64,000 nucleotides of DNA from Catajapyx aquilonaris (Eukaryota). A model generated the notes under the pieces. The model saw only the letters and a list, made by a program, of their open reading frames with translations, made no database searches and was not told the origin of the DNA. The stretch covers positions 1 to 64,000 of the forward strand of contig KZ538348.1 of the NCBI GenBank assembly GCA_000934665.2, read 5' to 3'. This document shows, piece after piece, positions 1 through 63,119 of the stretch (its first letter is position 1; every line of letters starts with the position of its first letter). The position numbers and the translations under genes are program-made.

Positions 1-837
1 GCGGCCTTTAGCGTAAAACTAGGTGCATAGATTATACACTACAAGATGCGCAAGATGGTTGCCGTTTAGGTAGCGGGTCTACTTGAACAGGTCCTTTCTC
101 CCTTCTACATTTCAGACTTTTCTTGGGACAAGTGCATTATAAGTTGAATGGCCCACAAGCAAGAAACACCATGTATAGCCTACTGTATTCCAGTTGACAC
201 CTGCATTTCAAATAACGACTTACTTGCCTCTTTTATTTTAGCTTCTAGACTCGTATATAGTGGCGAAGGGGGCAGAAGTGCGCCAAAATGTAATAGGCAT
301 GTGGAACAGAGAAGAAAGAAATTTGTTTATGGAGTCACGCTTAGCATCAGTGTGGGAACGCCGACGTGATTTCGGAGGGTATCCTATCAACGTAGTAATT
401 TCAGTATGGCATTAGTATACTATAATAACGATTGTGTTAAATAGCAAGTAAGACTGATTTAACATGTGTTAAGTTTGTACTTGTATGAAGCTATGTATAT
501 AAATTGCTAACCAGTAGGTTTGAAAAAAAAAACAAACAGATCCTGCAAAGTGTATATGCAAAGTGTATATGCTCGTATAATTATCATGGAACAACACTGA
601 TAGTCTGCTTTGTCAAAAAAAGAAGTCCTCCACAACCTTCCAAATATGTAGACAAAAAATATGACATGTGTGGTAGGCCTATAGCCTTATACTGTACGAC
701 TTAAAACGAAAGTCTTCTTATGTTCACGATATAGTTTGCTGTTACCGTACTTGTAACATCCAGGCATATCAATTGCGCTTTATATGATTTACCTGAATTA
801 TGCTTGATAAATTGCATTTGTTTATTTCGCCTTGCAG

Positions 838-20400: not shown

Positions 20401-21901
20401 AATGATAATATTTTAATATTTGGGACATGTGTTAAGTGTTCTAACCTGTAAGAAAAAACCCGTCTCTTACAGTCTTCTCGTTTAGTGAAAAATTATTATT
20501 TCTCGGAAGCGGTGCCGGAAGCGGGGCCGTGAGCCCCCTGACCCACGGCTCCCGGGGCACGCCCCCCCCCCCCCCCCCTCCGCCCCGCCACGTCCATGTG
20601 GGCTCNTGGTTGCATCAACGATGTTAGACCCCGAACAAGCAATTAATCCTATGATATGAATTACATAGGATCAACCCTCAACCACTTGTCAGTTGTCATG
20701 CGGGTTTACCTCGTTTATGCATACAGAGGTCCCGGGTTCAATCCCCACCCGGGGGGTTCCAGAGTTGGGCCATCTCTGGCTTCGTTTCGGGTGGCAATTT
20801 CCGATAGGCTAAGCCACCCGGGGGAGTTCACAAAATGACCACTACTCGCCCGCGCACACGCACTTTGCACATCCCCTCCTAACTACCTTGGAGTATACTA
20901 ATAAGATTATTCTTAACTCGCTCCCAAAAAAAACCCCAATGGTGGTAATCCGCCCCCCATATATATAAATAGATATGGGGCAATGAAAAAAAAACATTAT
21001 ACAGTAGGCCTACATATCGAATAATTTTTTTCTGTCCAGAGTTCTTTTCTACGTAGCGTCTACATCAGAAAGTTCATGGGAAGACTTCATATACGTTTTT
21101 GAGTGGGACACATGGATCACATTAGCAGCAATGGTGCCCGCTCTTGCATTAGCATTCCATGGCACTGTTGTGCTTTATAATAGTACTACAAACGGCAGTG
21201 AGTCATGGAATCTTCAGGAGGAAATGTGGGCATTCTTTGGTGCATTTTGTCAACAAGGTACAGCAATAATTTTTACTGTTTCTAATGCACTAATCACCAG
21301 GATAATACAGTATACTGAACCCCCCCCCCCCCNATCAAAGACAAAGGAGGCACATACCTCAAAAACAGAAAACTACTCAAACATGGAGTTGGTAGGAAAT
21401 GTCTTTTTTGAGTGCTTATGGCTACTTCCCCATATTGAGTATAACAGTATACCGGTATACCGGTCCAGTAGGGAGACGGAGTGGCGCTGCGGTAACGCGT
21501 ATGCGCCCACGGATGTTAAGGTCCCGGGTTCGATCCCAACCCGGGGACACCCCCTTCATCTCGTGCAGAGTTCGGGGTCATCTCTGGCTTCGGCTCGGGT
21601 GGTATTTCCAATAGACTAAACCACCCGGGGAGTTCACAAAATGACCACAGCTACGACATTGCACTGCACCTTGCACATCCCCTCCTGTCACCCTGCCCGT
21701 GGGCCCGGGCTTTCATTAAATAGGCACCATGTACAGTACTTAACAACTTTAAAAAATACAATAAAGGTCCATGCTATATACCCCGGAAAGGGGTGAAAGC
21801 ATTACCCACAAATTATTATCATTATTATTGTTGTTGTTGTTATTGTCGTTGTTGTCGTTGTTGTTGTTGTTATTATTATTCTTATTATTCTTATTCTTCT
21901 T

Positions 21902-24104: not shown

Positions 24105-25609
24105 TTGATATTTTGGTTTGTCGGTATTTGGTTGGTATATAGGTTGGCCTATTATGACCCAGGTGTAAATGATCACTTCTTGCTCTTTTGATGTGATTAA
24201 GATTTGATTAAGACTGCCTTACCGCTGCCATAAACCATTTTCCCACTGGAAAACGACTATGAAGGTGGAACGTCCATTGTCGTTTAATATCGTCAGTCGT
24301 CACCATTTAAAGAAATTATTCTGTTTCTGTAACTTCAATGCGAAAAATTGACAAAAATGCAACCTTTAGGAACTACAAGTAGCAAACAAAGGATCCGCTA
24401 AAATTAAGGTGAATGACACTGATCTATGTTGTTAGCAATATCTTAAAATATACCGAAGCAGGTTGGTGTAGGGGATAAGGAGCCCGCCTGCTAATCGGGA
24501 GGTCCTGGGTTCGAATCCCGGGGCCAGCGACCCTGACCATGGTTTTCCATGGTCCCCCCAGGACAATTCCGGGGTCGTTTCCGTAAAAATAGGCCACAGC
24601 CGCTTCCTTTCTTCCCTATCCCTGATCCCATCCAATGGTGGTAATCCACCCCCCTAAGGGAGCCGAAGGCTCTAGCACGGGGTATGAAATAAAAAATAAA
24701 TATCCTAAAATATAGGTTGCTCAAAAATAAAGGACTAACTTAGTGCTTTCAGAAATTCTGATCATTTAGCTGTTGTGAAATATGCATAAAAATGAAAGTA
24801 TTAAGTTATTTGTGTATATAGAAATTGAAATAACTAAGCAGCTACATTCTTCTCACCTGACGCACTTGGCGGCCAAAAAAAAATAGAAAAGAAATGGTGA
24901 CAGTTTCAAATAACCTTGGATATTCCAAAATACAGCAGGTTTAGAGCACATAATTATTTTCTGTGGAGAGGTATAGGCCTAGAGTATTTTTGGATGCCAT
25001 GTTCTATCATCTCGGGAAACTCGGGCGCGAAGAGTGTACCGGTAGCAGTAATTTACAAGTAACTTTCTGAAGTGCCCTACTTTCTGCCTACTGGAAATAG
25101 TTCAATGAGCAGAATTTCTCTAATTAGTGTTCCTTCTGTGTTCCGCGTTAGACCACTCTCCATAAATCATTTTAAAAATGTGACAAATAATGATTTTCTC
25201 TTGTAGCCTACTCAGAATGCAGGAAATGGGCACGCTATCTGCTGTGAGGAAACGGCATGTGGAGCTGGCAGATTATTCATGCGAATCTCCTCCTTACAAA
25301 CCTATGGAGCAAAGGGCAGCTGTTCCACTTGCCATTTTATTATGCATTGGTATGGGTGTATCCGTGATGATCATGGTTGTTGAACGTAAAATAGCACAAA
25401 AACAATATAGCAAAAGAATTTTGGATGTTATTCCCACTGACAGTAATAAAATACTGGCATATTATTGGCTTGCAAAAGTCAGAGGACATTCAAAGCAAAG
25501 CCTGAACATCGGCCCCTATGAATCTATGTCAAAAGTAGTCCATCAGCAAAATTGGATTACACGTTTGTCTCAGTCATTCCAGAGAAAAGTTGGAAAAATT
25601 AATTCTTAA
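14406..25609 (+). CDS. Divergent ionotropic receptor, paralog B, 10 coding exons, ~681 aa
   Basis: Exons 14406-14592, 14675-14859, 14962-15117, 15193-15351, 18104-18204, 18274-18432, 21040-21257, 22519-22733, 23747-24009, 25207-25609 total 2046 nt in frame. Hydrophobic signal-like N-terminus; WERRRDFG, RRMEVMDFTIP, GAFCQQG, CYGSVLISSLTVQ, LQKHSPYTKIINY. Confidence 0.9.
15706..16610. mobile_element. Non-autonomous TIR element with duplicated right end
   Basis: 17-bp perfect inverted ends tatatcctcctgagacc / ggtctcaggaggatata; right-end block with a 20-bp palindrome also present at ~16207-16240. Confidence 0.65.
16899..16925 (+). mobile_element. Helitron-like 3' terminus (GC hairpin + CTAG|T)
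   Basis: cccgggcaacgccgg hairpin followed by ...gctag|t, the canonical Helitron 3' end arrangement. Confidence 0.55.
18780..20608. mobile_element. hAT-like non-autonomous element containing nested insertions
   Basis: 8-bp direct repeat gttgcatc at 18772-18779 and 20609-20616; GC-rich (C)AGGGG.. and ..CTCNTG ends with poly-C tracts. Confidence 0.55.
18858..19149. mobile_element. TIR element carrying a (TAACC)n tract
   Basis: cttgtcttcactaaggcgtggggacg / cgtccccagaccttattgaagacaag inverted ends; (TAACC)n at 18921-18970. Confidence 0.7.
20685..20995 (+). mobile_element. tRNA-derived SINE (body type 2, tail type 2)
   Basis: gaggtcccgggttcaatccc B-box region; body shared with the 21471 and 60129 copies; tail aatggtggtaatcc.cccccc shared with the 24453 copy. 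Boundaries approximate. Confidence 0.7.
21471..21984 (+). mobile_element. tRNA-derived SINE (head/body type 2, tail type 1, compound microsatellite end)
   Basis: A-box-like gtggcgctgcgg, B-box ggttcgatccc; 15-bp TSD tataccggtccagta at 21456-21470 and 21985-21999. Confidence 0.88.
22334..22470. repeat. Compound microsatellite (AAC)n(AAT)n(GTT)n
   Basis: Read directly; the outer tracts are complementary to each other. Confidence 0.95.
22942..23000. repeat. Short hairpin with ~25-bp stem
   Basis: ccgcctgcacctctccttctctgtta / taacagagaaggagaggtgcaggcgg. Confidence 0.85.
24040..24103. repeat. (TAA)n microsatellite
   Basis: Read directly. Confidence 0.95.
24453..24698 (+). mobile_element. tRNA-derived SINE (head type 1, tail type 2)
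   Basis: ccgaagcag...ctgctaatcgggaggtcctgggttcgaatccc matches the 10304 copy; TSD aatatc(t/c)taaaatata at 24437-24452 and 24699-24714. Confidence 0.85.
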
Positions 25610-32825: not shown

Positions 32826-35800
32826 TTCAATTCAGGTGGAAAGTTTCCGTTTTCCATGACCCAGGAGCACCGGATAAACCTCGGGCTCTTATAGAGCAGA
32901 ACACACTGGAGGATATTGTGATTGCCAGTACTCTTTCATTATCACCCAAAAGACTGGGCTTTATGGATTTCACCATTCCCATCATATCAGAGCGGTTTGT
33001 TTGGTTGAGTTTCTCATTGCATATTATCACGTTCTCTCCTAGGCATTCACGCGCACGTATAAATCTTTCAATTAGAATTTTTAAATATATAACGTAGTGT
33101 ACCTACAGGGCGCATTTTTTTCTGCATATTTAACAATATATGCAGGAGACTGGAATTCTGACATGATATTAACGAGAAGTGCCAGAAAAAAAAACAATAT
33201 TTTTAATTGAAAATTTGATGCAAAAATGCAATAAGACTTTCTCGTTAATTCATGCTGAATGATTGAAGTAGCACAATTATGGCCTCGACTATATCAATTG
33301 TAAGATTGTAATTTTATTTTATTCTGGTTTTAGCATTGCATTCTACATCAGAACGCCTTCATCACGGGGCTCGTGGAATGCTTTTTTAACTGTATTTGAG
33401 TGGGACACGTGGATTACGTTGATTGCAATGGTGCCATTGCTTGCGATGACTTTGAATATATCCACAGCTGTCTATAATTCTGCAACTAACAGCACCGAAG
33501 AGAGAAATTTATTGGATGATTTGTGGGGGCTATTTGCTGCCTTTTGCCAAAAAGGTATGACCTGTAATTTCTATTGATTTTCTACTTTTAGAGTAGGATT
33601 ATACATTAAGAACCATTGGGTGGAATTTTCGTCCCACTGCTAGTTATTACTAGCAGGAACTATCGTCAAAGATACATGTATAGTACTTTACCTGGTATCC
33701 CTCCCTCTTCCGACTAATCTGCACAATTTTTTGAGGGTGATACTGTATAGTCCATTTGCAAGGAATGGCTAGGTATTTTCCCAAATATGACATACCGTCT
33801 TCTGTTGCCCCAGTCCTTCATTCCCTTAGCGCATAATATCGATAAAAAAGAGAGAAAGGAGTTACGACCTGAGTTTATTTGTAAATTAATGCAGGGAGAG
33901 TTGCCAAGTTTTCTCAAATAATGTATATGCCTCTTTTTGGGAAGTGTCTCAAGAATCCATTGCTATACACCTAACCTGATAATTTTAGAAAGTGGTTTGC
34001 GGAATTTCCCAACTGAAATTCTCATTTCCATTTCTGGCCCCCTATACATTTTGAAACGTGATTTGTTCTGCAGACTCAGTTATGGAACAGATAGGTGACA
34101 TTTTACAGCCATGCAATCTGTACGTAATGGTAAATAATACAATTGAAATACAGCCACTACCAGACTGACGTTGCTCTGACATATACGTAAATTCGGACTT
34201 ACGCAAACATTTGACGCGAAAAAATCTACGGAACAAACGTAAGAAGCACCAATTGGAGAAAGCTTTCAGCCTTCATCGACTTTTCTCTAATACTCAGAGT
34301 GCAGATTTGCATGCAAAATGTAGAGTAGGCTATATGAGGATCCGGTGGCGGACATTTTCAACATCTTTTCTCATGAAGATTCCTTTTCATGATGTAAGGC
34401 AAAATATCCATTGAGTAAGGATCATGAATAGTCACACTCTTCAGAGATATTTGAACAAAAAAACAGGGTTGCGCAGCGAATGAATCACACCTATATCCAT
34501 ACAGGGTTTGCCCAATTTGAAGGTCCGAATAAGAGATGAATAGGGGACTTGATGGATTAGTCACACCTGAGCACTGGACCCCATTCGAATCTTTTCCCAT
34601 TCCGATCCAGGCTTGGGACAAGATTCAGGTTTACTTTTTGCATACGCCACCGACTTTGTTTACATTGCCAGGGGAGAAAAATCCATCAACTCTCCACCAT
34701 CCCGCTGTTGGAAGTCAACTTGGGCAGAGAATCACCTTCTACTCTATACTTATGTAATGCCTTTTTTATATTTCAGGTTCTGAAACCAGACCTGCTCGCA
34801 ATTCGGGTCGCCTTATATTTTGGTCCGGATGCTTCATGTTTCTTATATCATACATATATTACGGTTCAGTTCTTATATCGTTTCTGGCAGTTGAAAACAA
34901 ACGTGCACCCTTAGAGGATGTGTTTATTGGTCTGCGCTCTGACGAATGGACACTAAAAGTATGCAGCTGGATTCAAGAATTATTTTTAAAGGTAGGTTAC
35001 TGTGAGAACATAGCACATTAGTATCAAAAAATCGGGTAAAATATCTTGATTCCGGAGATGCAGTCGGTTTTTATGAGAACTAATATGTAAAAAAAAGTCA
35101 AAACGTGCTGCATGTGGTGGATGTTTTTAGCCCAAGAAATATACGGTAATTATGTTAGCGTTGTTTTCATACATGAGGCTTGGGCTAGTTCCTCGAAAAT
35201 GTTTTTGGATGGGGTACACGATAATCTGCCTCGCAGCACTGCAGATGACAAAATCCAATCAGTAAAACATGACACATGTTTACAGTTCACAATGGCACAT
35301 GCCTTTGTAATGTCAACTAGATCGAGACAGGCATATTGGTGCTGGTAACATGGCAGGACAAGAAAATGCCGGTATCTGTGCTTTGTGAACGCCGTGATAA
35401 CAGTGACCAGAGAGAGAGAGAATGATATGCGAAGACGGTAGATGGTTGATTCTCTGCCTGGAGTTGGGGGTGGCCAGGTGGAGAAAACGGAATATTTTAT
35501 TATCCCCTTTCCCCCATTTCCCGTCTGGCGGTGCACACATCAACCAGATGACGAAATTTGCAAGAATTCGATCTCTCGCCATGGTTACCTTTCAGCTCTC
35601 AGAAAAACGGGATTGCACTCTCGGAATCAAGATTCTATGCCCTCTTTTAAATGTCCAACTCAACTAAGTAAGTGCAGTGTCCTTAAGTAAACACCAGTCA
35701 CAAAATATTGGACACCACGGGTTTTCGCAAGATTATATGAAAAATCATATTTGAAAATATTGTACTATGATGGAGACACATGGTGTTCCATAATAATACG

Positions 35801-37536: not shown

Positions 37537-38110
37537 ACAAGGGAAGGTCACGGGGTGATAATGACGGATCTTGATGAAATTTAACATGCTAATACAGGAC
37601 AATATATGATACCCAAAAATGAAATATTTCATGCGGAGGCCCATATTTTCAAAAGTTATGACGTCTTAAAGTTCCAAAAATAATACATTTTCATTCATAA
37701 TGGGATTACATTAGCGACCACATAATTATAATGACATGAAAGTGTGTAATCAGTTTCTACACTTTTTCTCATGAGAAAAAAGTCCTACAGAACGGCTTTG
37801 TCCGTCCGTCCGTCTGTGGACAGGTATCAAGGCCTAAACCGTAAGAGATACAGAGCCGTTCTGTAGGACTTTTTTCCGATGAGACAAAGTGTAGAAACTG
37901 ATTACACACTTCAATGTGGTCTTATATGTGGTCGCTAATGTAATCCCATTAGGAACTCAATGATTATTTTTTTAACTTTAAGACGTCTTAACTTTTGCAA
38001 ATATGGGCCTCCGCATGAAATATTTCATTTTTGGGTATCATCTATTGTCCTGTATTAGCATGTTAAATTTCATCAAGATCCGTCATTATCACCCCGTGAC
38101 CTTCCCTTGT
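37537..38110. mobile_element. 574-bp fold-back element with (GTCC)n core; DINE-1/Helentron-like sequence
   Basis: Arms of ~260 bp beginning acaagggaaggtcacggggtgataatgacggatcttgatgaaattt; spacer contains gtccgtccgtccgtctgt. Confidence 0.8.
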
Positions 38111-38309
38111 AAGTTAGTTTGATTATCCAAATACCCTGCTGTATTAGCAGAAAATATAATCAGATAGTTGATTCACATGGTGAATACAGTATATTTGGCC
38201 ACACCGCTATTTTGATTCCAACCCAGTGTGCTGTACATAAAGCTTACATTAAAGAGCGATCAAGCCACAGCGCCATAAGTCTTCCATGATATACAGTATT
38301 TACATCTTT

Positions 38310-38500
38310 CCGAGACAGCCTGGAATGGTAATGTAGTGGATATTGCAAAGTCTGAGGTCCCAAGTTATATCTCCGGATCGAACAGAGGAAAATATATTAA
38401 CATTCTCATGTGGAAAGATTTTCGTGTGTTCTCTCCGTGCTCGCGAGGGCTTTTTCGGGGTTCTTCTGTTTTCTCCCACATTTCAAAAACCATCACAGCG
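38310..38500 (+). mobile_element. Degenerate tRNA-derived SINE with V/Meta-domain-like core
   Basis: Eroded B-box, then gtgttctctccgtgctcgcgagggctttttcggggttcttctgttttctcccacatttcaaaaac; relative at ~63120-63290 shares ttctcatgtg.aaaga. Confidence 0.5.
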
Positions 38501-40013
38501 CAGCAGTTGAATAAAGCTGTCATTTAAAAGTATGATCTCCTAAAAGGTCCCAGTTGGGCTGTCACAAAATACCGGTGTCCTAATACTTTAAAATATACCT
38601 TACGGTATATCTTTCAAAATGGGCTGGTCCATATGTGGCATGGTCTGGTGGGGGAAAAGTTATGTTAACATATTTAACACTGGTTCTTAAGACTGCATAT
38701 TGCATGAACATGTTTTTTATCATATCCCTCATATACCTAAACAATGCAAGATTCTATTACTGAGGAAAAAACAGCCAAAAAATTGAAGTAAATGTACACA
38801 CTAGCTTTTATAACATGAAGAGAGCAAGGGAGGAAGAGGGAAGTCGCTCTGCCATTGCCTATATAGTGTTAGAAAGGTTGATTGCCTCCCAATCACATCA
38901 TAGCTGCCAGCACTAATCTAGTGCAGTGGGTCCAAGAGTGGGTCTCAAAGCGCGGTGGGCCGCGGGATCTGGGTAACAGTCAATGACGTTCAAAAAGCAC
39001 TGAACGGTAGCCTATGGTAGGTGTGAGGTGAGAATGATTACATTATAAGAGGCTTTTCATACAGTATTCTAAATTATGGTGGCCCAAAGGCGGCCCAGAG
39101 CATTTGTAAATTGAATGATTCTGAGTTTCTATACAGTATGTACAGTAGCCTACATCCCGCCATGTTTGGATCAAAAAGGGTGAAGGTGACCAAAATAATA
39201 GTCATAATTATATGCATAAGGCGTCATTTCCATAAATGATGTAATCCATTTCTTCTTTAAAAAACTAATCCGACAAACATTTAGAATGAAATCTTGGTGA
39301 CTAAATGATGACATTAGATTTTTTGCATAGGTGGTCGGAGCCGCCTTGTTACTGAGATAAGTAGTTTTAATCATAACTGACAGCAAAACCTGTTCCTTTC
39401 TCGGTTCATGTATGCCTTGGACACTTTGAATCATGCCGAGTTCGCCGTTTAAATTTAATATCTCCGTAACGTCTACTGATCATATATTCAACCTAGAGGT
39501 TTTCTCCTCTGGTTTTAAATAAAACGATTATTGTGTGACAGCATGGAGGGTCAACATTGTAACATTACTCCACAACATTAATCTCACATGCACGAGAGGC
39601 ACGCAAGTATGTTATATAACTTATATCCATTTTTCTGAATAGCATAATAATAATAATAATGACGACGACGGCGGCGATGGACCCTTGTTATTCTAATGCG
39701 CGGCTTAGCACAATATTTGTAATAGAGTGTGCTGCAGTTGTGAAGAGAAGAGGACTAATAAGATGTAACAAAAGAGATGTTCAGGTCCGGAAATTAATAT
39801 AACTTATTTCAGTTATTTGTCTGAATATTATAATAATGATTCTGTTATTAACATAACGACAGGGAACTATCGACGTTATAATCAACAAAATATTAAGTTA
39901 ATACTTGCACAATCATAAGCAAACTGTGATATTACTTTTATGTACAATGCTTCTTTAGCAAATGTACATACATATAAACAGACATGAGCTCTATTTAGCC
40001 CACAGATTTTTAA

Positions 40014-40276
40014 TGAAGACCTCGGGGGAAGAACAATTCAACGTCCACCTCATGTGAAACTGAGATATTGCAATTTCAAATTTCGAAGGTCCATAAGGTT
40101 CCATTGTACGTCCTACTTTCGGGGCCTTCTACATAGTGCACTATGATTAATTACTCCACAATCAGGGCTAAACCATCATATTCTACACTAGTGAAACTAT
40201 CTTCTGATGAGATATGTAGGCCTAACTCATTTTTGACAAAACGTGGACCTTGATCGTTCTTCCCCCGAGGTCTTCA
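40014..40276. mobile_element. MITE-like TIR element
   Basis: tgaagacctcgggggaagaac / gttcttcccccgaggtcttca 21-bp inverted ends. Confidence 0.75.
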
Positions 40277-43200
40277 AATGTTAAATTCACAGGTAAGGGA
40301 CGTATTGCAATATTTGTTGAGCAGTGTGCTATACAAATAAAATTTTAAGTCGCACCTGAGGCTGCTGATAGAAAATAATGTTCAGTCTTAGATGCATGAT
40401 GCTCTACTGTATAATTATCTGCCCAAAGAGAAATGTACAGTAATATTATGAAGTCATAATTTGAAGGCTAATTGAATCCAGCTTGATATTGTATCTGGCT
40501 TGAACAGTGTGTAATATAACCTGTGCCCAATTCCTTGCGTAGGCCTATCGTGGATGTATCTAATGATAAGTAACTTTGATGTTGATGCAATGTGAAGCTG
40601 GAAATGGATTTGCACATATTGTTAACATTTATGTAGTGCATGATTTTATAATGTCATATTGGCGTAGAAGTGTAATTTTTAATGTAACAGTGACCTCAAC
40701 ACAGCATATTTTTAATTCATAAAGTGGATGGATCGAAATAGGAGTGGCAAATGGCATGTTATGTCAACATGTGCATGAAACTGTGGCAATCATACAAGCA
40801 GAAACTTGACTACCGCCTTCATGTCGCATTTGGCATCTCTTGCAAATAATACATTATAGCATGTTGATCACCCGAAATGTCAATTTCTGAACGGTTATGG
40901 TATAGTGATGATCACAAAGATACATTGTCAATAAATTCTCCATAAACTGCGCATTTCTTTATCCAAAAGGTGTCCCTGGAGTTTTTTTTTCAGCACAATA
41001 AAATATTGTAGTACATTTCCATATCTGCCAGGAGAAGTTTCAGGAACTTCTATTTTTACTGGCTAATAAGAATCACAACATCTAATTAGTCAAGTTACAA
41101 AGTTGAGAGGAATATACTGTACCTTGAACATGCTCTATTCTACATAATTATGTAAAAAACCTACTTGAAAATCTACCTGCACGTTATAAGAAACAATAGT
41201 CAAAGTACCCAGTATTGTACCCACCTGAATCAATCGTATAGGTAAGATTCATTTTGCAGCCTTAGAAACCACCACATTTACATGTTAAACTTCATACAAT
41301 TAACCTATGAGCAAAGGCTGTTGCAAAATGTAACATATTTACTTTGATCCATGTAGGCTCAGGGGTTATCTCATCTTCAAGTTTCAAAAAGCAAGGCCCT
41401 TAGCAATGGTAGTCTTCTACAAGTAGGACCTTTGTTTACGACTCAAGAGATTCACTGGTAAAAGGAGAGCTTCTTGATTCCAAAGTGTTTGTTTTTCCGT
41501 TGTCAAGCTAGAAGTGAACATGAGAGGCTGAAAAGTTCCCGTCGATTCAACACGAAACCTTCTGCTTTATTGATGCTCCAGCACTTCTTTTAGGTCCAAA
41601 AAAAATGATGTAGATTAAAATCAAACATTGAACGTTTATAACCGGAAGCATTTATTTCCGACGAAGAACAGAATAAGCAGGTGAAAGGCAGCTGGAGGCA
41701 TGCTCCAAGTAGCCAGAGGACACGCATTGTACACAAATCCACCGATATCGTATTATTATTATTTTATTTGTCGGATGATCGTTGTTTTGTTTTGGCCAGA
41801 AAGAGTAGAGAGACTAAGGAAGTTGAGGGGGCCATCCGGAGCGTGCCCAAAGGGCTCCATAGGCTGGGTAGCGAAGCGACCTTCGAACTCGCACCGGCTC
41901 GGGGACAGGGTTGCCGCTCTCGAAAACACTAGTGCATGTCATTATTATACAGTGGGTAGGTAGGTGGGTGGGTAGATGGGGCTGTTGCAAACTTCCCAAA
42001 CTCCTCTCTTCTGGACCACTGTCCCCAGATATTTGTCAGGCGAAAAAAAGAAATATCAGTCATTCACACTGTAAATAACAAGGCGGAGGCGTACCCCAAG
42101 GTTTGAACCTATAATAATTAATTAGTGATCTAATAAACATGAGGGTAGTGAAGTAACGGGATGCTTGAAGAAGGTGGGATAAAAGGTCGCCCTCCAGCCA
42201 CTTTTGTCATCTGCAGAGTGAGGATGGGATCGTATAGAGTGGGCAAAGAGAAGGAGCGGCAACCCGATCCCCGCCCCGGGGCAGCTTCAAGGCCGGACTC
42301 GGTGAGCTGACATCACACCGTTTCCTTGGCCCAGGTGCCCTCCGTCTACCACCAGGTTGGTGGCAGGTGCACTGAAATGACCAAGCATGAAATATCGTAG
42401 TTAATATACTGAGTAGGCATTTAAGTAGTGTTTACATGGTAACATTATCATTATCAAGAACTAAGGTGAAATAATAAGGCCTGAGCAAAGTATAGTCGGT
42501 TGACTGCGCGAGTGGCAGAGGGCACCACTTCCCCTCTAAAAGCAATTAGCAACAAACGTTGCTAGGAATATACAGAACTGTCTCCGGCAGTATATTTACA
42601 AACGTATCCACCTGGTATGCCTACAAGATGCATTTTGTGTTTCTTGCTACCTTCATCCAGATGAATCACTAATCAATGCACAATAAGTTAGTGGACAAAA
42701 GGAAATCTGTTGCGATAGTGGGTTACAAGGCTATGGAAAAAAGTGCGAGTTCGATCATCCACTGTCGGCTACTAAAGCTTACATGACATTATTAAATAAA
42801 ATTGAGAGTTACGCAAATGTAGAAGTGCATTATTTTAGGTTACATTTTTAGAATATATTAGGCACAGGAAAGTTATTTGGATATTTACAAATAATCCTTC
42901 AATTCACCAAATACATAAGAGTCACCAAACTGTTTAAAATATACTCCAGAACAATTAAATAAATGTGTTGTTGAAAACATACAAGTAGTATCCACTGGTT
43001 CATTGTACTACGTACAATACGAGCTGTTAAAATATACAACGATTCATCAATCAGTGGGAGGGGGATCTGAAAATGAGTTCAAATACATCAGCGTCTCTTA
43101 AATCCGATTTTCACTTTCACTTCGCCAAGTTCTTCAAAATAATGATTCTACAACCTACAATTCATTTACTGAAGTCCCACTATTAAAAACTATTACAATA

Positions 43201-43971
43201 TATGCTCCACTAAATGGTCTAGCATAAAACAGCTCAAAAATGATATACTGATAAACTAATATTTTAAAATTCTGAATATGCTCAAAAAATGAAGGATATT
43301 TTGCAGGGCATACAGTATGGGTCAATAACTCAATTACATAATAACAGTGATTTAAAATTAGAATTATTTCTTTGAGTGTAAAATTGCCTCTCCTGTCCAG
43401 TGAGTTTTTATTCGGAAAGAGTGAAATTCCGTTAGAGATCGAAGAAAGCGATAACTCCTTTGACGATCAAACGTAAATATATATAACCATTATTGTCATT
43501 TAGAGCAAGTTATGTTACAAAAATGTCTTATTACTGCAAAAGTACTCTATTGCATCACTTCAAAGAAAGCTACTTTTTGCATCCATATTAGGGGCGAACA
43601 TTTTATTCGGCTCATTTTCTACCTTAAATGCACGTTAAGAGGTATTACAATACTACAGCATTACATTATGATTATATTAATAAAAATAATAGCAGATTAA
43701 ATAAATATATTCAGAGTAATAGTAAAGTTACAAGAAGTATTATTGTTATTATTATAACGAGATACGTATTTGGATAATATCCAATGAACCAACTTTACAA
43801 CTTATATTATGAATCTGCAAGTAACATGCATTACAAAAGCTGATCTACTTTATCCGTTATCCGTTATTAAATGGTATTTTGACGCAAATATAAATGCTTC
43901 ATTCAATATTACACGTATTCGGTAATCTTGCTACCTTGAGATACATTTTCTAAAAAATTGAATCCCTAAGA

Positions 43972-44111
43972 GTACAAGGGTTGGGTTTTCGTTATCTTGC
44001 TGAGTCTCTCTAGCAGCCTAGTTTTGCTAATCCGGATTCTCCCATAAGTTTACTAGTAAGTTATTAACAGCGGTACTGCTAGCTAGCAGCGGGACGAAAA
44101 ACCGACCCTGT
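43972..44111. mobile_element. Degenerate TIR element
   Basis: acaagggttgggttttcgt / acgaaaaaccgaccctgt imperfect inverted ends. Confidence 0.45.
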
Positions 44112-44378
44112 TTAAAACGTTTAATGCGCTGTCGTTCATAACAAAGCCCGTACAACCGTGATTGATTTCAGACGTGTTGATGCCAAAATCGTGTTAATAC
44201 AGTCTCCAACGTCTTTGTTAGTGCAAATGAGTAGACTACAGTCACTAAGAACACCTTCGACGAGCTTTTTCTGCGATGCCATGTAGTCCTTTGGCCGTTA
44301 CTACGATAGTAGTGGTAGTAGAAGACAGTATAATGGTAGTAGAGTAGCTGCCGTGCGATGTTGCCTTGGCTGTAAGCG

Positions 44379-47300
44379 TTAGTCAACCAGAAGATGCGTG
44401 ATGGGGCGGGCCTCTTGCAATCTGGCTGCCATGTTAGACTGTCCGATCATTTCCCATCCACCCTCCCACCCACCATTGGGACGCAGAGGATGCTGCTCCC
44501 AGAGGTAGGTGTTCTTGACGGGCGAGAGGTAGCTTTCCCTGTAGGCTGATGGGCTCCTCCAGACGGGCTGCATGTAAGGGATGAAGGGGGCCAGCTGGGG
44601 GACCTCCCACCACCAGGGCTTCCGGACGGCCAGGGCTGCAGGGGTGGCCAGGGAGTCCAGGAAGTGACGTAGGGGCTTCCGGAATTCAGCAGGGCTCGGA
44701 CTGCGCGAACGCTCGATTGGCAGCCCTACAGGGGCGTATAGTACGGTAGATATGCAAAGTATAGTTGTGTTTTGTAGTAGAGGATGTGGCTTTGGATTGG
44801 GCTTACAGTTAGCAAGAGGGCGTTGCTGACCATTTGGTTACGTTTGTGCAAGGATGACCAGTAATAGCTTGGCGGAGCGTTTTCATTTCACTTATTGAGG
44901 TCTTCAATAAATGGAGGGCCTTTTCTAAGGCTAGGGTACAATGGTAGTGTGTAACTTCTTTTGATGGATCTATTTCCTTCTGCTGTATCACTTTAACCAG
45001 TGGCGGATTTCCTTAGCTCCCACAGAGGGAAAATAAAGCGTGTAAAACGGGGGGGGGGAAAGAAAAAACGGGGGGGGGGGGGGNNNNNNNNNNNNNNNNN
45101 NNNNNNNNNNNNNNNNNNNNNNNNNNNNNNNNNNNNNNNNNNNNNNNNNNNNNNNNNNNNNNNNNNNNNNNNNNNNNNNNNNNNNNNNNNNNNNNNNNNN
45201 NNNNNNNNNNNNNNNNNNNNNNNNCCCCCCCCCCCCCCCCAGAAAAAATTCCTGGATCCGCCACTGACTTTAGTACTTTACTTTAGTACACGCTTTTAGT
45301 ACTGCGACGTACGTATACGTACATAAGGAATTTCGTTCGGTTAGTGTGCATAGAACTTGTTTGCGCGATGTCCAGCTATGTTTAGAATGATTACATCATC
45401 GAATTTCATATGTCTGTCCTTACCAGACGCCAAATGACTACGATGTATATGAACCCATGAATTTCCACTTGCTCCCAAGTCCTAGAGGACTTGGGCCCTA
45501 CGGAAATTCATTGGTTAATATTATTATAACAAGTTGCACTAAATTTTGATTGATGTTAACATCACCATAAAATTGACGTGTTAATTTAGGATATGCATAG
45601 CAATAATAGTGTTCTAGGCTATCATTTTAATGGTCATCCTTGTCCAGCGCCATGGGAAAGTTGTTTTTCTTTCTGGTATTGGGAAAGTGGTATGACTATG
45701 TTATTGGAGTGGAATGAAGTTGCCCTAAATAAAACTAAACATATGTGCAAGTCTCCTTCCTATCCATACATGTCTGTACTTGGCACATAGTTTAGCTTTC
45801 CGAAGGACAGTTGTAGATGAAATGAAGTAATAAGGCATCACTCACACGGTCACACAGGAAAATAAAACGTCTACTTCCCTAGCTGTTGCAATGTAAGGAA
45901 TTTCTAACCCTCTCGCATCTAATTCAGGAGCGAGACACTTGAGTCTAGCAGTGGCTTAGAAAAGTTTTTCGGCCTTGGACAACCCCAACTATCTCCCCGA
46001 TGTCGATGGTTCAATATTGCCAGTAGAAAATGCTGATGGAATATTCAGAATAGGTTGCAGTACTTTAAATCTTTAGTGACCCGAAAGCTAACTTCTGAAT
46101 TTGTAATTTTACGTGAAATTGTTCCAGAATTACTAGGTTTTTATAGTCAGGAAACTGACAAATAAGCCTTAAAGAGGAATATACCGTAATTCAGAATATC
46201 TTTGATGTAAAATCGGGATGTCAGTTTAATAATGGAAATTAAAATTGAAGTTAACCCCCCCCCCCCCCCCGTTTCTGATTTGATAGTGAGTACTTGATGA
46301 CAATACTGTACTTTTGTCAAATAAAATTATTTGAGAATATAAAAATCACCGTTATCTTAACTGTAACATGATAAAAGGTAAATTCATTGGTTATTGCACA
46401 ATACACAAACGAGAATGTTGAGATAGCAGCAGTACATTTTTTGAACTTCAAGACATCAGATTCTGTACATGTAGGCTTACTTAATAACTGATATACCGGT
46501 AATTACTTCTTAGAAGTTATCGCGTAATGATACTCTATCATACCAATATAAACTGTTCAACTTATTTCGCATAAGCTTAGAGCTATTATCAACAGAGACA
46601 AATCAGTAAAAAGTTCATAAACCTCCAAAATTGAGGCCATCAAGTTTCTTTTAATACATTTTCTACTAGCCTGTTTATCACTTTATTTTCTGGGAGAAAA
46701 AACAAAGATAACCGATAGGTGCTTTTCTAAACCAGTATTCGCAGCCTTAGTGGGCTATGATCCCAAGTTCCGAAACACCATCTCCAATCTATTTTTATTC
46801 GCTGGTAACCCAGGCGTGTTCTTGATAGAGGCCATGGGTACATGGTTATGCCATCGCCTATGAATAGCCTCTTACAAGCCAAGCTATCTACGTGAATACA
46901 TCTTCGTCCAATACAAAAGATCGTCTGCATTAGTAGGTCAAGAATGTTTTCTTCCGAGATTAATGAGCACAAAAAATTGCAAAACTTCCGCGGTCAACAA
47001 AATCTTAAATTAAAGTCTGGAAATAGATTTGGAATCAAGTGCGGCCTGATTTCGGTGCCAGAATTTTTGCAAGCGTATAGTTAGACTTTGAAGGAAATGG
47101 GTCGCTTCCTCATAGTTAAGATATTCTTGACCTTCGCGGAAACAACATTCATTCCATGAAAAGGGGCATTATGGGTACATAGGATGAGGGGTCGACAAAA
47201 CATAAGGAAGTGTGTTTCATGAGCCTCTTCCTTTTAAAACCATCGTCTAACTGTGTATATTGGTTTCTAAAAGGGAGAGTATGAGAGGAAATGAAAAAGG

Positions 47301-50300
47301 CAGTCCGAACCACAAACAAAATTGCAGAAGGTTACCACTACGGTCTCCACACTCGCACGGGATCTATAAAAACAGAATGGAAATGGACGTGAGTATATGC
47401 ACAGGGTAACAAACGTCACTATAGCGGGAGAGCAATACAGTGCGGGTACAAAAGGATCTTACCATGCATGTGATGACATCAAAATACTGTATATGCCCTA
47501 GAGAAACAATTATGCATATTACGGTCATATTATTTTGTTGTGGGTGGGAATCAATCATCTAAACAACATGGGAATCACGCCATTGCCTCGCTGAATTTAT
47601 ACCTAATGCGATTTGGAACGTGGGCCTAATGAACACGAGTGTCATTTAGATCAGTTTTTGTTGAAAGTATGTTGTGCTTTATCTCAGGCAGAATTTTATT
47701 TTCGGTAGGTACCTGAGGAGGGTATTTCTAGGACGTTGCAAGTGCATGCAACATATTATTGCCCAAAATATGCCAGGTCAAAATGATATTATTTTTGAAA
47801 TACCCTACTCACGCATTAACCGAACTAGGATTTTTAAAATTGCATTTGTCTTATTTTTAATAAGAAATGAAATGTTTGCAGACTTGACTGTAATATCACG
47901 AATCATCCACATATAGACGAATTTGGGACTCGCAGGGCAAATATTGCACCGGAGCAGTAACTGTTCCGGTACAATATTTGCTCCGCGAACCTCAAATTCG
48001 TCGATATGTGAATACGTCTTTAAACTTACCATTAGAATCCATATACAGTCGTAGCCTACTTGATAAAAATGAACGCACCTGTGACCTGAATGAGGTGGTG
48101 TGACACACGGAGGGTTGTAGCAAAATCTAAAATGGGGTCATCCACTTCTCTCATTTCATGCATGCTTCAGAACAGAGACGGAAGTTTGCATCGGCACATG
48201 ATGAGGGCTGGCAAATGGGTTTCTGGAGCAAATGGGGGTAAGGCGCCAAGGAGGAAAGAGAAACAAGCTCCGTTTTGGAAATTGTCCAGCAGCATGCCTG
48301 CTGGTTGGAAATGGCACTAGGCCCTCTGCGTAACACTTATCACCTTACGTAACCGACCCTGCTAGGTATGTACCGGTGCTACAGTACCAGCGTTTTCATG
48401 GCCAGACAGTACGCCTCTCTTGCCACTTCCCAAGGCTAAAGGAATGATGAGTGATGAGACTACTGTACCAGCATAGTTGTAGGCAGCTGGAGAGTCGAAT
48501 GGGAGAGCATAAGAGGGGCGGAGAGGGATGGGACCAGCCAGGTCCAAGGGAGCCAAACGGTCCAACGGAGTGTCTCGATTGATAGCTCGGCGAGGAGGCA
48601 AAGAGCCTGATGGAAAAAAAGTAAAGAATGGTAGGAACATGTCTCCAAGGATGCGGCTATCTGATTTCTGGTTCAGTCTTGGTATGTCTTCATGAGCCTC
48701 CGCTTCATGGTGTCTTCAGCTGTCCTTCACTTGTCTCTCCTCCGTAATTCCATGGTGTTAGGTGCGCCAATTCAGATTGTGCATCGCAGCTTCCTTTCTT
48801 TTGCAATGTAAAATGTAATTTTGGCCATAGTTGTGTAGCACTTGATGTGCGTACATACAAGGCCTGGATTGATAGCTTCCGCTGCCATATTTAGAAATGC
48901 GCTTACGAACATTTTCTTGGCTGACATTCATCTACCCTCTTCTTTATATAGGCTGTTCTCTGAACTAAACATGGGAGAATTGTTCGCAGGTCCGAAAGAA
49001 AACATGACTGAATGCAGGAGAGGCAATTTCAACCACTGACGTAAAGGTGAACGAAGCAATATATTGCTATTTTTGTACCTTTAATGTTTATAGCCTCACT
49101 GTGTTGGGAAATAAGCAACAGGCAATCATTTTTACAAGTTCAAAAATTTAACCAGTCTCAGTGTCTTGAAAATCATAATGATGCTACAAATATTGTGAGT
49201 ATTTTAATGGGAGCATTTTCGGCCATTATTTATTACTATTATACTGTATAAAACTTGTCCTGTCATTATTATGCTGGATTAATATATTTCAAGTAGTGTA
49301 ACTACAGTGTAAAATCACAATCTGTAAAAGTCCCATCTAGTAAATTATTAGCATAATAATATATTACCGGCACGTTTTATACAGTATAATAGTAATAAAT
49401 AATGGCCGAAAATGCTCCCATTAAAATACTCGCAATATTTGTAGCATCATTATTATTTTCAAGACACTGAGACTGGTTAAATGTAATGATAACTTCACTA
49501 ACTTGAGATTCACCAGAAAAAGCAAGTAAAAAACAATCTACTGGGTATTATACCTATGTGATGGACATGCTACTAACATTGTAACGCTAAGATTGTTACT
49601 AAAATTATATTTCCGATTGAAAAATTATTATCGGTGTAATAACATTTACATGTTTCACGTTGCAATACGGATTTTTCAATACGCAATGAGAATCAATATG
49701 CCTATTCGGATGCTACGTTTTATTTTATACTGTTTTGTAACATGCTAGAATGCACTAAAAACAGGATCGCTTTCTAATATCACCCTTTTGAAAATTATAT
49801 TTTACATTCAAAATTATGTTGCAATGTTTAAGATTTGGAATATTTGAGAATATTTACGAAAGCGAATTCAAGCCAGTACAATGGTTCACAGACTTTTAAA
49901 GCTTTTAAAGATTTTGTTACTGTTTTCATGGTAGTTTCAAAGTAGGCCTATTTTATGGAGCATTTTTGAACCAATTAAAAATAAACAAAATGGAGTGAAA
50001 AGTTTACAACCCAAATTATTTATATCCTGTCCTCTTCCGAAGAGAAGGTTCGAATTTTCATTGGATGTCATCCTAGACGGTTCCGAGGATTAAACAAAGC
50101 ACTTATGTGACGAATTGTGGATATTTTTCCAAGAGGTTCAGTAGGTAGTCTACGACACAATGACTTCGTGCTGTTTGAAGTAGTGTCTATTACTCTCCTA
50201 TGCTGTAGCACACGACTCAAGGGAACATGGACATGTTTTGGAAGACAATGGTGCTACTCTGTCCTGGACGCCCATAAAAATGTGACAGCGTTACAGAAGG

Positions 50301-52627
50301 ACCACTACGCAGTAACACATGACCATCGAACTGGTCGAATCCGACTATTATAGGTGCTTTGAGGACCTCCTAAAGTTCTGGTAACACAGTATAATATGCC
50401 TAAAGTCACTACTCTGAGGAGGTTGTACTAAGACTGAAACTATTGTGCTTCATTAGGAATATTTTGAAAATGTACAACTTACAGAATTTTTTGTTCCTGG
50501 TTCATATGGCGGCGTTCATCTCAGACCTCTTTCTTCGTTTATACGAAATACAACACATTGCAAATGTCTCCATGTAGCCTTATCTGTCTGAACTCTCTCT
50601 ACCATGCTAATAATAATCGGCTATGTATGGGTATTTATAAAAATTTGGGCTGCAAACTGTTGATATCACCTGGTATGTAGTCTACTCGTACTGTACAATA
50701 CTGGCATAATAGACTGTAATTGATACTTAAAAAGTACCGGTACACTAATGACAGCCTAATGTATTGGAAGCGAAAAATGAAAAATATTACTTTCATCTCA
50801 TCCTACCACATAATTATAATGCACGTATATTATAAAATGTAGCATTTCACATTGAAATATGTTGCACATTTTGGCACCTTGACAAATTGCTGAAGTTAAA
50901 TTACTGCCGGAACGCCCCTATATTTACTGAAAAACCGCAGTGCAATATCACATAGCTGAAAATCATTTTGTAAATTTATTCGGGCCGCTGTTTTGAGCTT
51001 TAAATGATTGGTGGGTACTTTTCTGTTGCTGCGTGATAGCTCCACCTTCATTATCAGAAAAACAGGTGGAAAATCAATATTGATTTATTGAAGCACCAAC
51101 GAAGAATGCAACGAATTTTGCAGGGCAGTGCATTGAAAAGCACGAATATGCATCCTGTAGTAGATGGCGGACATATGTGATATCCTAATTTTTAAATTTC
51201 GAGGGAAAAATCAAATAATATTGCACCAAAAGCCGAATGTTTTAACCTTATCTCTCAATGAATATGCCTGTATCAAATATTGCAGAAATGCAAGACAATG
51301 TCAACTTTGCCACAACTGACAAATATTTTTTTCTCATTATTTCCTTCTTTTGTCACTACACAATGTTAGCATTGAACTGGAGCAGATCCTAAGTTTGTTT
51401 TAAAATCACCACCTCCTCCGCAGACTCTAAATGCATATGAGACACTGACCTGATCTTGGGGGCCTCTCAGGCATGCTGGGGATGTATCGAGGAGAGTATC
51501 CGTAGATGTCCCTGGAGACTGGGTCGTAGTGGTAGCCGGGTGCGTGGATGCGGCTGTATGGGTCTTCGGCGTACGGCCTGTCCTCCAGCAGGGGTTTGTA
51601 GAAGGGATCAACCTTGGAGGGCAGCATGTCGAAAAGGAAGGGACGGGGACGAGTCCGGCTGGTTTCAGGGGCACGCATGTCCTCGGAACCTACACCAACC
51701 AACACAAGTTTTCGTTTACAACTTCATATCAAATGCACTTATTGCGTCATATAGTCTAAAAGAACTTGATGTGCATTTCTTTGACATCAAGCAAATTATT
51801 CAGTAGGTTACATTCGGTAGCCAGTGTTTAATTTTTAAACAATGGCAGCAGAGACAAAATATTGGTTTTGATTTTTTGATTTGATTTGTCTGATACAATA
51901 ACAGCTTAACGCAAGAGAGTATAGTTTCAACTCCATGCCTTGCACTGAATTTAACATTTGATCATGTACAGAAGCAAGCCATTGGGACTGTGAGAGAGCA
52001 AACCTAGTGAATTAATAATTAAGGAAAATAGTCTAATTAATGCATCATGTTAATACTTGCTGAATCAGAAACATCGCACAGTATACCAAAATCACGCATG
52101 GAAAGGTTTAAGCCGTATCACAGTAAATGGAAAGCTCCGCAATATCTGGCCACTTGTTTGCTCTAGCGCTATCCTCTGGCGAAGGCCTGTCCAGACACAT
52201 TATACGAACATTTTTGGATCAGATATTGTAATTTTCTAATATGCTTCCAAACTCTGGCATAATAAACGTTAAATTGATAACGGTTACACTACGAGATATT
52301 TTTGCAAATCATTGTTTAACTTTCATGTTATCGGAAGCAATAAGGGGTTGTGGTTGACTCATCTATCCTCCAATTTCCCCCCTTGATATTAGGTGGCGCC
52401 TAACCAACCTAACTGTGCGTATGGTAGGGAAGCACAAGAGGCGCGATCATCCATTCTAAATATTGCTTCTACTGGATTTTGCTAAAATATTTGTAATGCC
52501 CGTTAATGAAATGTAGTACTTAAAATGACTCACCCTTGAGTGCCCTGATGTAAGACTGCCAGAATTTGGCTTTGCGTTGAACGGGATCGTTCATCTGCAT
52601 GATGATCAGGTGATTCTTCAGATACAT
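44379..52627 (-). CDS. Mf: Myofilin-like muscle thick-filament protein (one isoform ~272 aa; 3' end uncertain or alternative)
   Basis: Exons 52627-52534 (MYLKNHLIIMQMNDPVQRKAKFWQSYIRALKG), 51689-51450 (SEDMRAPE...RIHAPGYHYDPVSRDIYGYSPR), 48606-48469 (...AYNYAG), 44725-44379 (...KPWWW...SYLSPVKNTYLWEQHPLRP). KAKFWQSY.RALKGS.D.RAP and PGY.Y.PV.R..YGYSPR are recalled myofilin-family motifs. A donor at 44473 may lead to other terminal exons. Confidence 0.82.
44998..45266. mobile_element. hAT-type MITE (CAGTGGCGGA TIR) spanning the assembly gap
   Basis: cagtggcggat / atccgccactg; imperfect 8-bp TSD actttaac / actttagt; G and C tracts flank the N run 45084-45224. Confidence 0.75.
49152..49476. mobile_element. 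Fold-back MITE flanked by TTAA (piggyBac-like)
   Basis: TTAA|ccagtctcagtgtcttgaaaat... arms of ~100 bp ...attttcaagacactgagactgg|TTAA. Confidence 0.75.
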
Positions 52628-61772: not shown

Positions 61773-61875
61773 TGTATGAGAGTTTGATATTTGAAGCTTG
61801 TTTTTTTTCAAGCATTTGTCTATGGAGCTCTATCTTTTTGCAAGAAGACTGATTCAATCATCATAAGTGCGTATA

Positions 61876-62205
61876 CAGTGTGTCTCATCTTTTTTGTCCG
61901 AACAGTTATCGGGAAATTGCGCGTAGCTGCTACTTTTTAAGCAGTGACTTGCAAACGGTGATTTTTCGGAGGAACGGGGAATATTCTCTGCGAATCGTAG
62001 GTTGAAGTGGCATACTTGCCGCCCGCCGAAAATTGAGGATCAAGCCTGGAAAAAAGAGGGTCACACATGCCATGGGATGTGTGACCCTCTTTTTCCCCAT
62101 TCCCCATTCCTCCGACAAATCACCGGTTGCAGGTCACTGCTTAAAAAGTAGCAGCTACGCGCAATTTTCCGATAACTGTTCGGACAAAAAAGATGAGACA
62201 CCCTG
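61876..62205. mobile_element. Tc1/mariner-type hairpin MITE
   Basis: TA TSD; cagtgtgtctcatcttttttgtccgaacagttatcgg / ccgataactgttcggacaaaaaagatgagacaccctg; inner hairpin aaaaagagggtcacac / gtgtgaccctcttttt. Confidence 0.85.
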
Positions 62206-63119
62206 TATGAATCAATAAGGCTTGCATCACACTATTTCTAACTCAAATTCGAAAAAACGAGACTATTTGATAGTTCTGAATTTCAAAAATTCATTTTCGA
62301 AAAAGGTTTGTCTTGATGTACCCTATCTTCCATTAAAATTGGTATACACATAGTTTTAAACACACTGTAGTGTTTGTGCAGTAGTTCGATATCCTCTCCT
62401 AAAGTTTTAGTCAAAAATCGCAGAGATTTGACCAATAATTACACTGACGGGTATTTCTGGATATTTTGGCTTTATGTTTGAGAGCATGGTACTTTATTTG
62501 TCAATATCTAAATCAGAGTAACTTGCAAATATAAATGCAGCATTTTAAAATGTGTATTTATTGCAGATGATACAGCATTATTGAGAAGTATTTCTCCTCT
62601 TTCACTCATTCTCTGTCCCTTCATGTACCCTCATTCTTTTGAAGTTTTTTTTTGTTCCTGTTGATTGGACACAATAAATATCGACCCCATATTCTAAACC
62701 CCTATGATGAGGCTAGCTGTTTGTCATTGCTCATCGGATTTATTTTGTGCCGAAGTCGTCTTTTATGCATTTTTTTTACCACACTTTGATCTTCCTAAAT
62801 TGCATAAAATAATATGCATGTTATGTTTACTTGGCCTATAGTGATATGGATTTTTCTTATCTACAGTATCCAGACCCATTTAAATGCAATTCTCATATGC
62901 ACCCTATCAAAATGTTGTACATGAGAGTACTACTGATAACACATACTGTATTTATAGAGTAGACTACAGTATGCTATATTGAATACATCCTATATAAACT
63001 TTTGATGCAGCATTATTTTGATAAACGGTGAAGAAGATTGTTTTACTCGAATAATTTCACATTTGCAGGTAAATAGGTTGGGAACACGGCCCAGTAACAA
63101 TGTTTAGAAACATTATCAG

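Follow-up and report, generated by a model that had tools for sequence, protein, structure and literature searches.

Long-range RNA duplexes and the myofilin locus

In the arthropod genes Dscam, 14-3-3xi and Mhc, long-range intronic pairings control exon choice by means of a docking site and competing selectors, while human inverted Alu pairs in 3′ untranslated regions (UTRs) form double-stranded RNA bound by ADAR or Staufen. Further, the spatial shortening of the stretch between stop codon and poly(A) tail has been proposed to protect mRNAs. The structures recognised by Staufen in Drosophila 3′ UTRs include a Type I, defined as balanced [19,15,0], i.e., with at least 15 of 19 positions paired and no unpaired base, and human ARF1 carries a 19-bp Staufen1-binding stem; by the same account a balanced [19,15] structure is also present in 12% of non-targets (PMC3814352). 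Here we compare with these systems an inverted repeat at the myofilin gene of Catajapyx aquilonaris, found in the first 64,000 nucleotides of contig KZ538348.1 (assembly GCA_000934665.2), a stretch that we refer to as the window. A sequence-only reading had placed this repeat downstream of myofilin and had proposed that it acts as an RNA switch selecting myofilin C-termini or 3′ UTRs, or else as an ADAR substrate. RNA-like contigs instead place it within the 3′ UTR of the terminal exon.

Exons, splicing and the 3′ end of myofilin

The gene lies on the minus strand, where the exon at 51427-51723 matches the Pfam family Myofilin (PF15929) with an E-value of 1.8e-13 and 51.7 bits against a cut-off of 27. 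A tblastn search with the 305-aa myofilin P0001 places exons at 52621-52532, 51690-51481 and 44720-44478, and the cassette exon 44474..44725 shows 40% identity to this protein. Among representative proteins, a HMMER search recovers 14 relatives with E-values of at most 0.001, comprising short forms of 115-125 aa and long forms of 275-314 aa; a comparison of the exon at 51 kb (hereinafter exon 51) with proteins of near length yields no candidates. The features of the gene that matter in what follows are these:

51450..51693, minus strand: myofilin-domain exon (exon 51), whose donor (AGATCAG/GTCAGT) is spliced straight to 42371 in the abundant isoform.
44474..44725, minus strand: cassette exon of the long isoform (hereinafter exon 44), with its donor GT at 44473-44472 and an X6 joint to 42372.
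42372..42373, minus strand: acceptor AG in use (catttcag/TGCACC).
41642..42371, minus strand: terminal exon common to the short and long isoforms, with 8 codons, a stop and a 3′ UTR of about 700 nt.
42346..42371, minus strand: start of the terminal exon, coding part (G)TG CAC CTG CCA CCA ACC TGG TGG TAG, read as VHLPPTWW, with TAG at 42348-42346.
41651..41656, minus strand: AATAAA in keeping with the 3′ terminus of the relative's contig at 41642, 9 nt past the motif.

Transcription and copy number were followed in four public runs (X1, X4, X5 and X6), whose contigs were placed on the window at 80% likeness. X1 and X4 are one sample, probably of DNA, and may be the source of the assembly; X5 comes from the same organism and X6 from a second one (the relative). 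The kinds of X5 and X6 are not on record, and we take them to be RNA from their depth and junctions. On this footing transcription of the segment follows the sense strand of myofilin, as had been supposed: the depth of X5 is 8068 and 6276 in the bins of 41860-42399 as against 9.67 in 42400-43479, with 113 on 43936-44726 and no contig cover over 41590-41859 and 43633-43935, gaps on which no conclusion is based.

The splice into the terminal exon is read from the contigs. The X5 contig on 42120-42374 (depth 5327.6) has no differences from the DNA and bears a loose end of 26 letters that equals 51454-51479 without a mismatch; since exon 51 ends in AGATCAG/GTCAGT at 51450, this contig marks a splice from 51450 to 42371. 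That it was placed up to 42374 is due to the letters TCAG, which are common to the end of exon 51 and the acceptor. X6 contributes a contig that links exon 44 with 42372, skipping 2115 nt and showing 13 diverged letters at the exon end, and a second that connects exon 44 upstream to an exon ending at 48469. Joint and loose contig ends cluster at 42372-42375. Of the acceptor-like sites that the sequence-only reading had listed, its tttcag is thus present, with the AG at 42373-42372 on the minus strand, and is the one used. The acceptor at 42372-42373 (exon start 42371) serves the abundant short isoform and the long isoform alike. The donors at 51450 and 44474 are both in phase 1, and both joins yield VHLPPTWW followed by the TAG at 42348-42346.

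Downstream, a 729-nt X6 contig is colinear with 41642-42372, from which it differs by 29 letters and 10 gaps. Minus-strand AATAAA motifs stand at 41763-41768, 41651-41656 and 41566-41571, of which the latter two had already been picked out from the letters, and a poly(A) site near 41642 appears probable from the position of the second motif. As this contig runs from 42372 to 41642, the structure does not lie beyond the end of the transcript. Given that the exon starts at 42371, that the stop codon is at 42348-42346 and that the contig ends at 41642, the whole span 41810-42335 falls in the 3′ UTR, and we consider it very probable that the structure belongs to the 3′ UTR of the common terminal exon.

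Insect myofilins are described as varying in length and C-terminus (PMC9820631). In one group of relatives (P0005 and P0010) the short form ends in DRYRPGKSKY and the long form in HPIRPFAAVY, so that the C-termini of the isoforms differ, whereas in the window both isoforms end in VHLPPTWW.

Three further observations concern the same transcripts. One X5 contig (depth 113) covers 43936-44726, running from the exon-44 acceptor straight through the donor at 44473 and continuing 540 nt beyond it; the adjoining intron piece has a depth of 9.67, the frame ends in LLVD with a stop at 44381-44379, and no minus-strand AATAAA occurs between 43700 and 44473. Intron retention and an alternative 3′ end are the two explanations of this read-through. 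Next, two forms of the gene are present in X6, a close one (exon 44 with 7 differences over 253 nt, at depth 10.2) and a diverged one (30 differences over 218 nt, at depth 662), and at the 42371 junction the latter shows an exon-51 end of its own; this suggests either two taxa or two copies of the gene. The depth ratio appears to assign the long UTR contig (depth 173.6) to the closer form. Finally, the intron upstream of exon 44 contains an assembly gap at 45084-45224, with 141 N flanked by G and C homopolymers.

Geometry, predicted fold and copy number of the inverted repeat

The elements of the structure within the terminal exon are as follows:

42254..42294, minus strand: 5′ arm of the stem in the mRNA, with its core at 42254-42273 (repeat finder and exon fold).
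41878..41919, minus strand: 3′ arm of the stem in the mRNA, with its core at 41900-41919 (repeat finder, exon fold and duplex energies).
41920..42253, minus strand: 334-nt enclosed region (loop), including a tandem repeat at 41952-41980 that is C-rich and has a 12-nt unit.

The repeat finder reports arms at 41891-41919 and 42254-42282 of 29 nt each, 83% complementary and spaced by 334 nt. On the minus strand the core (42254-42273 versus 41919-41900) comprises 18 Watson-Crick pairs, one U-G pair (42267/41906) and one C.U mismatch (42266/41907), which bears out the count of 18 of 20, or 19 of 20 with the G-U pair, made from the letters. The imperfect pairing described as extending outward from it is likewise recovered in the prediction, where the stem runs on to 42294 and 41878 with 35 pairs across 41 and 42 nt and one bulged base. 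The inner ends of the arms pair best, and their similarity weakens outward across about 57 nt. A further outer helix, 41814-41821 (ctaaggaa) with 42322-42329 (ttccttgg), had been proposed; the two segments are indeed complementary at 7 of 8 positions but lie outside the predicted fold, in which 42329-42333 pairs elsewhere with a probability of about 0.17.

When the whole 732-nt terminal exon is folded, the core pairs have probabilities of 0.90-1.00 and the outer part of the stem 0.51-0.89. The free energy is −39.6 kcal/mol for the isolated core and −71.0 kcal/mol for the extended arms, and forcing the 5′ core arm to stay unpaired raises the minimum free energy by 26 kcal/mol. By this model the two segments are the dominant long-range helix of the terminal exon and the stem should be very stable if folded; that the duplex forms in the RNA we consider probable.

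Against shuffled sequence the pairing stands out. With at most 1 mismatch allowed, the 12-mer core has no occurrence in the 64 kb besides the two arms, for an expectation of 0.08 matches, and none of 100 shuffles gave two occurrences. The best ungapped helix scores 56, a value reached by 0 of 500 dinucleotide shuffles of the exon (mean 29.4, sd 3.3, maximum 42), while the 546-nt stretch around the stem has a folding z of −2.15, with 2 of 100 shuffles folding as well or better.

The stem segment is also single-copy, since X1 and X4 each offer just one contig over 40252-45082 (depths 26.9 and 19.3), with the depth at the segment equal to that of its flanks, and no further X1 or X4 contig on bins 41860-42399 even at 80% likeness. 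In the window, a blastn search with 41780-42360 gave no additional copy longer than 17 nt. Hence, with DNA contigs at single-copy depth and no second copy in the window, the segment is not the multi-copy transposon that the sequence-only reading had named among the three outcomes that would undo its proposal (the others being a position past the transcript end and a lack of conserved pairing), none of which is clearly seen here. No flanking duplication is seen either, in line with the earlier failure to spot one; neither the multi-copy state nor the terminal inverted repeats with a target-site duplication that mark foldback or miniature inverted-repeat transposable elements (MITEs) are found here. 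Whereas two repeats elsewhere on the mapped stretch have DNA-run depths in the thousands, the myofilin segment stands at 26.9.

Two smaller features of the exon lie close to the stem. A hairpin at 42346-42366 (minus strand), reading CUGCCACCA ACC UGGUGGUAG, has 9 bp and a 3-nt loop and includes the UAG stop codon, with pair probabilities of 0.66-1.0 in the fold of the whole exon. The tandem repeat at 41952-41980 has a unit of 12 nt in 2.4 copies, reads in the mRNA as a C-rich CUACCUACCCAC tract and sits in the loop about 30 nt 5′ of the 3′ arm of the stem; among the differences listed for the relative's contig, none falls in it. Read mapping flagged 41947-41981 as a place where reads appear to be cut.

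The stem and the choice of exons

A pairing of this span could in principle loop out an inner acceptor or alter the choice of terminal exon or 3′ end. Myofilin is alternatively spliced, acceptor-like AGs lie within and after the structure, and the three minus-strand AATAAA motifs are all downstream of the 3′ arm, as a splice or poly(A) switch might be expected to show. Both arms, however, lie in one exon, downstream of the sole acceptor with evidence, and the two observed donors reach that acceptor in the same phase and so produce a single C-terminus. Among the joints listed, none leads into the inner caacag or the downstream ctccag, an absence limited by the fact that contigs can lose rare splice forms, and the relative's contig is colinear and unbroken through the loop and through both of these candidate acceptors. 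The inner caacag is preceded by purine-rich sequence. Moreover, there are no competing copies of the arms in the window, which holds every mapped myofilin exon (52621 to 41642).

What myofilin shares with Dscam, 14-3-3xi and Mhc is alternative splicing in a muscle or neural gene of an arthropod, together with complementary segments that stand hundreds of bases from each other. In those genes, the arms lie in introns beside alternative exons and several selectors serve each docking site; in myofilin, both arms are in the 3′ UTR of a constitutive last exon and only two copies of the arm exist. Thus, with both arms in one exon and no third copy in the window, the layout of docking site and selectors is absent. 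We regard a splice or poly(A) switch as highly improbable at this locus; in all likelihood the stem does not choose exons.

A candidate 3′ UTR stem of the Staufen-recognised type

The two arms are co-transcribed in an abundant mature mRNA, within its 3′ UTR, from a single-copy segment. In this setting the closest described counterparts are the Staufen-recognised structures and the ARF1 stem, which resemble the myofilin stem in their location in a 3′ UTR and in consisting of an imperfect stem of about 19-20 positions that has mismatches and no unpaired bases and whose arms may be distant. The core, in which 19 of the 20 positions form canonical pairs, one is mismatched and none is bulged, agrees with the balanced [19,15,0] definition and is comparable in length to the 19-bp stem of ARF1, and its arms lie between the stop codon at 42348-42346 and the contig end at 41642, i.e., where Staufen-type 3′ UTR structures are located. 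The comparison is tempered by the fact that the Staufen definition is computational, comes from Drosophila and is fitted by many non-targets, whereas the myofilin stem is known from sequence and from another organism.

We tentatively propose, with somewhat less than even confidence, that the stem is a functional 3′ UTR element of the Staufen-recognised type, which is the best reading of the locus. In the mature mRNA, the 35-bp imperfect stem would close a 334-nt domain and draw about 415 nt of UTR into one compact fold. It would then act after splicing, in the cytoplasm, where it could serve as a platform for a Staufen-type double-stranded-RNA-binding protein and could shorten the effective distance from stop codon to poly(A) tail; through either effect, a muscle mRNA of very high abundance might be altered in its stability, translation or placement. 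That the stem has a selected function of this kind, whether as a Staufen platform or by shortening the UTR, is possible, although we lean slightly against it. An extension in which the stem is a conserved, selected element that, with the stop-codon hairpin and the C-rich repeat, recruits a Staufen-type protein, such that a thick-filament mRNA ranking among the most abundant is stabilised or locally translated at growing sarcomeres, appears unlikely and is offered as speculation. A narrow literature search, and therefore a thin basis for absence, brought up no study of structure in the myofilin 3′ UTR; the myofilin papers that it listed deal with filament structure or muscle transcriptomes.

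A possible inverted duplication without function

The repeat could instead have arisen as an old inverted duplication, or as a decayed foldback or MITE-like insertion in the 3′ UTR, in which pairing may occur but nothing depends on it. The same-genome foldback and MITE-type elements, e.g., the one at 49146-49482, share with the myofilin stem inverted complementary arms a few hundred bases apart, and human Alu pairs share with it an intramolecular 3′ UTR duplex built from two inverted homologous segments; Alu pairs, however, are multi-copy transposons with stems of about 300 bp, in contrast to the single-copy 35-bp stem seen here.

Several results weigh against a selected role for the stem, and those on other inverted repeats, arm decay, Rfam and covariation also speak for such a relic. 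On the minus strand, an inverted repeat with a score of at least 56 is present in 26 of 173 overlapping stretches (732 nt each) of the window, and the myofilin stem scores lowest among those 26. Most of the other high-scoring stretches have far longer arms and a foldback-like look, the neighbouring foldbacks reaching scores of 74-237 as against 56 for the myofilin stem. A clear example nearby, 49146-49482, is 85% self-complementary over 350 nt. Thus, the stem is beyond chance when set against shuffled sequence, yet unexceptional against the real sequence of the same genome. The outward decay of arm similarity over some 57 nt resembles what an old inverted duplication would leave, and a search of 41400-42600 on both strands with Rfam 15 gave no match at E of at most 1.

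The relative adds little to the case for function. Among the 23 of the 29 differences of its 729-nt contig that are listed, the 10 gaps being unplaced, 13 fall in 41679-41782, 8 in 42042-42092 and the remaining 2 at 41921 and 41937; the arms are free of them, and compensatory change, i.e., covariation, is absent from this set. Both larger clusters (41679-41782 and 42042-42092) contain an A/T-rich low-complexity run. The unchanged arms were not accepted as evidence for conservation, because the long contig is only about 3-4% diverged, at which level zero changes in 83 arm positions are expected about 1 time in 12. The diverged X6 form is placed only on 42269-42309 (3-4 differences in 41 nt) and on 42343-42375. 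Nor are variable sites depleted in paired positions, their mean pairing probability being 0.48 versus 0.56 overall; where a variable site has a best partner with a probability of at least 0.5 (7 sites), the pair is lost in the relative at 5, so that the predicted inner structure of the loop is not conserved. To these points is added that the RNA status of X5 and X6, neither of which is recorded as RNA, is itself deduced.

On the other side, the DNA contigs show one copy of the segment at 80% likeness and the window offers no second one, pairing is best at the inner arm ends and not at element termini, no target-site duplication is visible, and both arms are unchanged among the differences listed for the relative's contig, though this last is a weak test. 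Taken together, these leave a functionless inverted duplication as a serious contender, which falls short of an even chance and is almost as likely as the Staufen-type stem.

Searches for more distant counterparts yielded no orthologous 3′ UTR. A protein scan of metagenome contigs with exon 51 gave 78 pattern stretches, none of them confirmed, and a pattern of the two arms in metagenome contigs led to 2 loci, both unrelated long palindromes with only 12-mers in common, which were set aside. An exact 26-mer of the exon start had 0 matches in prokaryote genome contigs, and a 19-mer of the left arm hit 2 contigs of bacterial metagenome-assembled genomes that match over 22-26 nt only, i.e., by chance. 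The spurious plus-strand frame of 96 aa at 41642-41932, sought in the relatives' contigs, gave 2 candidates, neither significant, and ARAGORN found no tRNA-like gene on 41000-43000.

The stem as a possible editing substrate

The duplex might instead recruit the editing enzyme ADAR, with A-to-I changes in the UTR altering the fate of the mRNA, as the sequence-only reading had suggested as its second option. A 20-position core within a 35-bp stem in a very abundant transcript would offer a target, and duplexes of about this length can be edited by ADAR. However, the stem has only four adenosines (42268, 41918, 41912 and 41911), whose 5′ neighbours are G, G, C and A, and the neighbour preferences of ADAR make 5′ G, C or A contexts poor. 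The X5 contig on 42120-42374, which spans the right arm of the stem, moreover has no difference from the DNA, a result to be read with the proviso that contigs hide minority variants, so that partial editing is possible. We judge a role as an ADAR substrate to be very unlikely.

Other repeats and genes in the window

Just downstream of myofilin, 37540-38349 and 39970-40509 are high-copy repeats with many joints of the 'opposite strands' kind; summed contig depth in the DNA run is 36717 on 37540-37809 and 8497 on 39970-40239, with unique sequence at about 27. Both are inverted-repeat transposon-like elements. The window also holds two large foldbacks of about 336 nt each, at 49146-49482 and 61873-62208. 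The former is intronic to myofilin, with the exons that end at 51450 and 48469 on either side, and in a blastn search it matched only itself, which indicates that it has no similarity to the latter. On the plus strand, 811-5169, 21008-21619, 25184-25609 and 33272-33577 contain repeated open frames with similar peptides (e.g., SESSWEDFIYVFEWDTW...). This array resembles tandem genes of ligand-gated-channel or ionotropic-receptor-like proteins, with a Lig_chan match (E 0.0056), below the cut-off, as its sole support from Pfam.

Significance for myofilin and arthropod muscle

The firm result is the corrected gene model, in which the supposed downstream structure is the 3′ UTR of the last exon common to both isoforms. 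On the defining features tested, the stem is unlike the splice-switch family and unlike multi-copy transposons, and it matches no Rfam family. Should it prove not to be functional, the gene model remains useful and the splice-switch reading can be dropped. The interest of the Staufen-type reading, which is moderate, lies in the abundance of the transcript and in a clean, testable geometry. If the more speculative recruitment of a Staufen-type protein with the hairpin and the C-rich repeat were true, the UTR would constitute a structured zip-code for an arthropod sarcomeric message. If the stem itself is functional, it would represent a natural long-range 3′ UTR duplex beyond the few model cases, and would offer an easily mutated handle on the post-splicing control of a very abundant sarcomeric mRNA in arthropod muscle.

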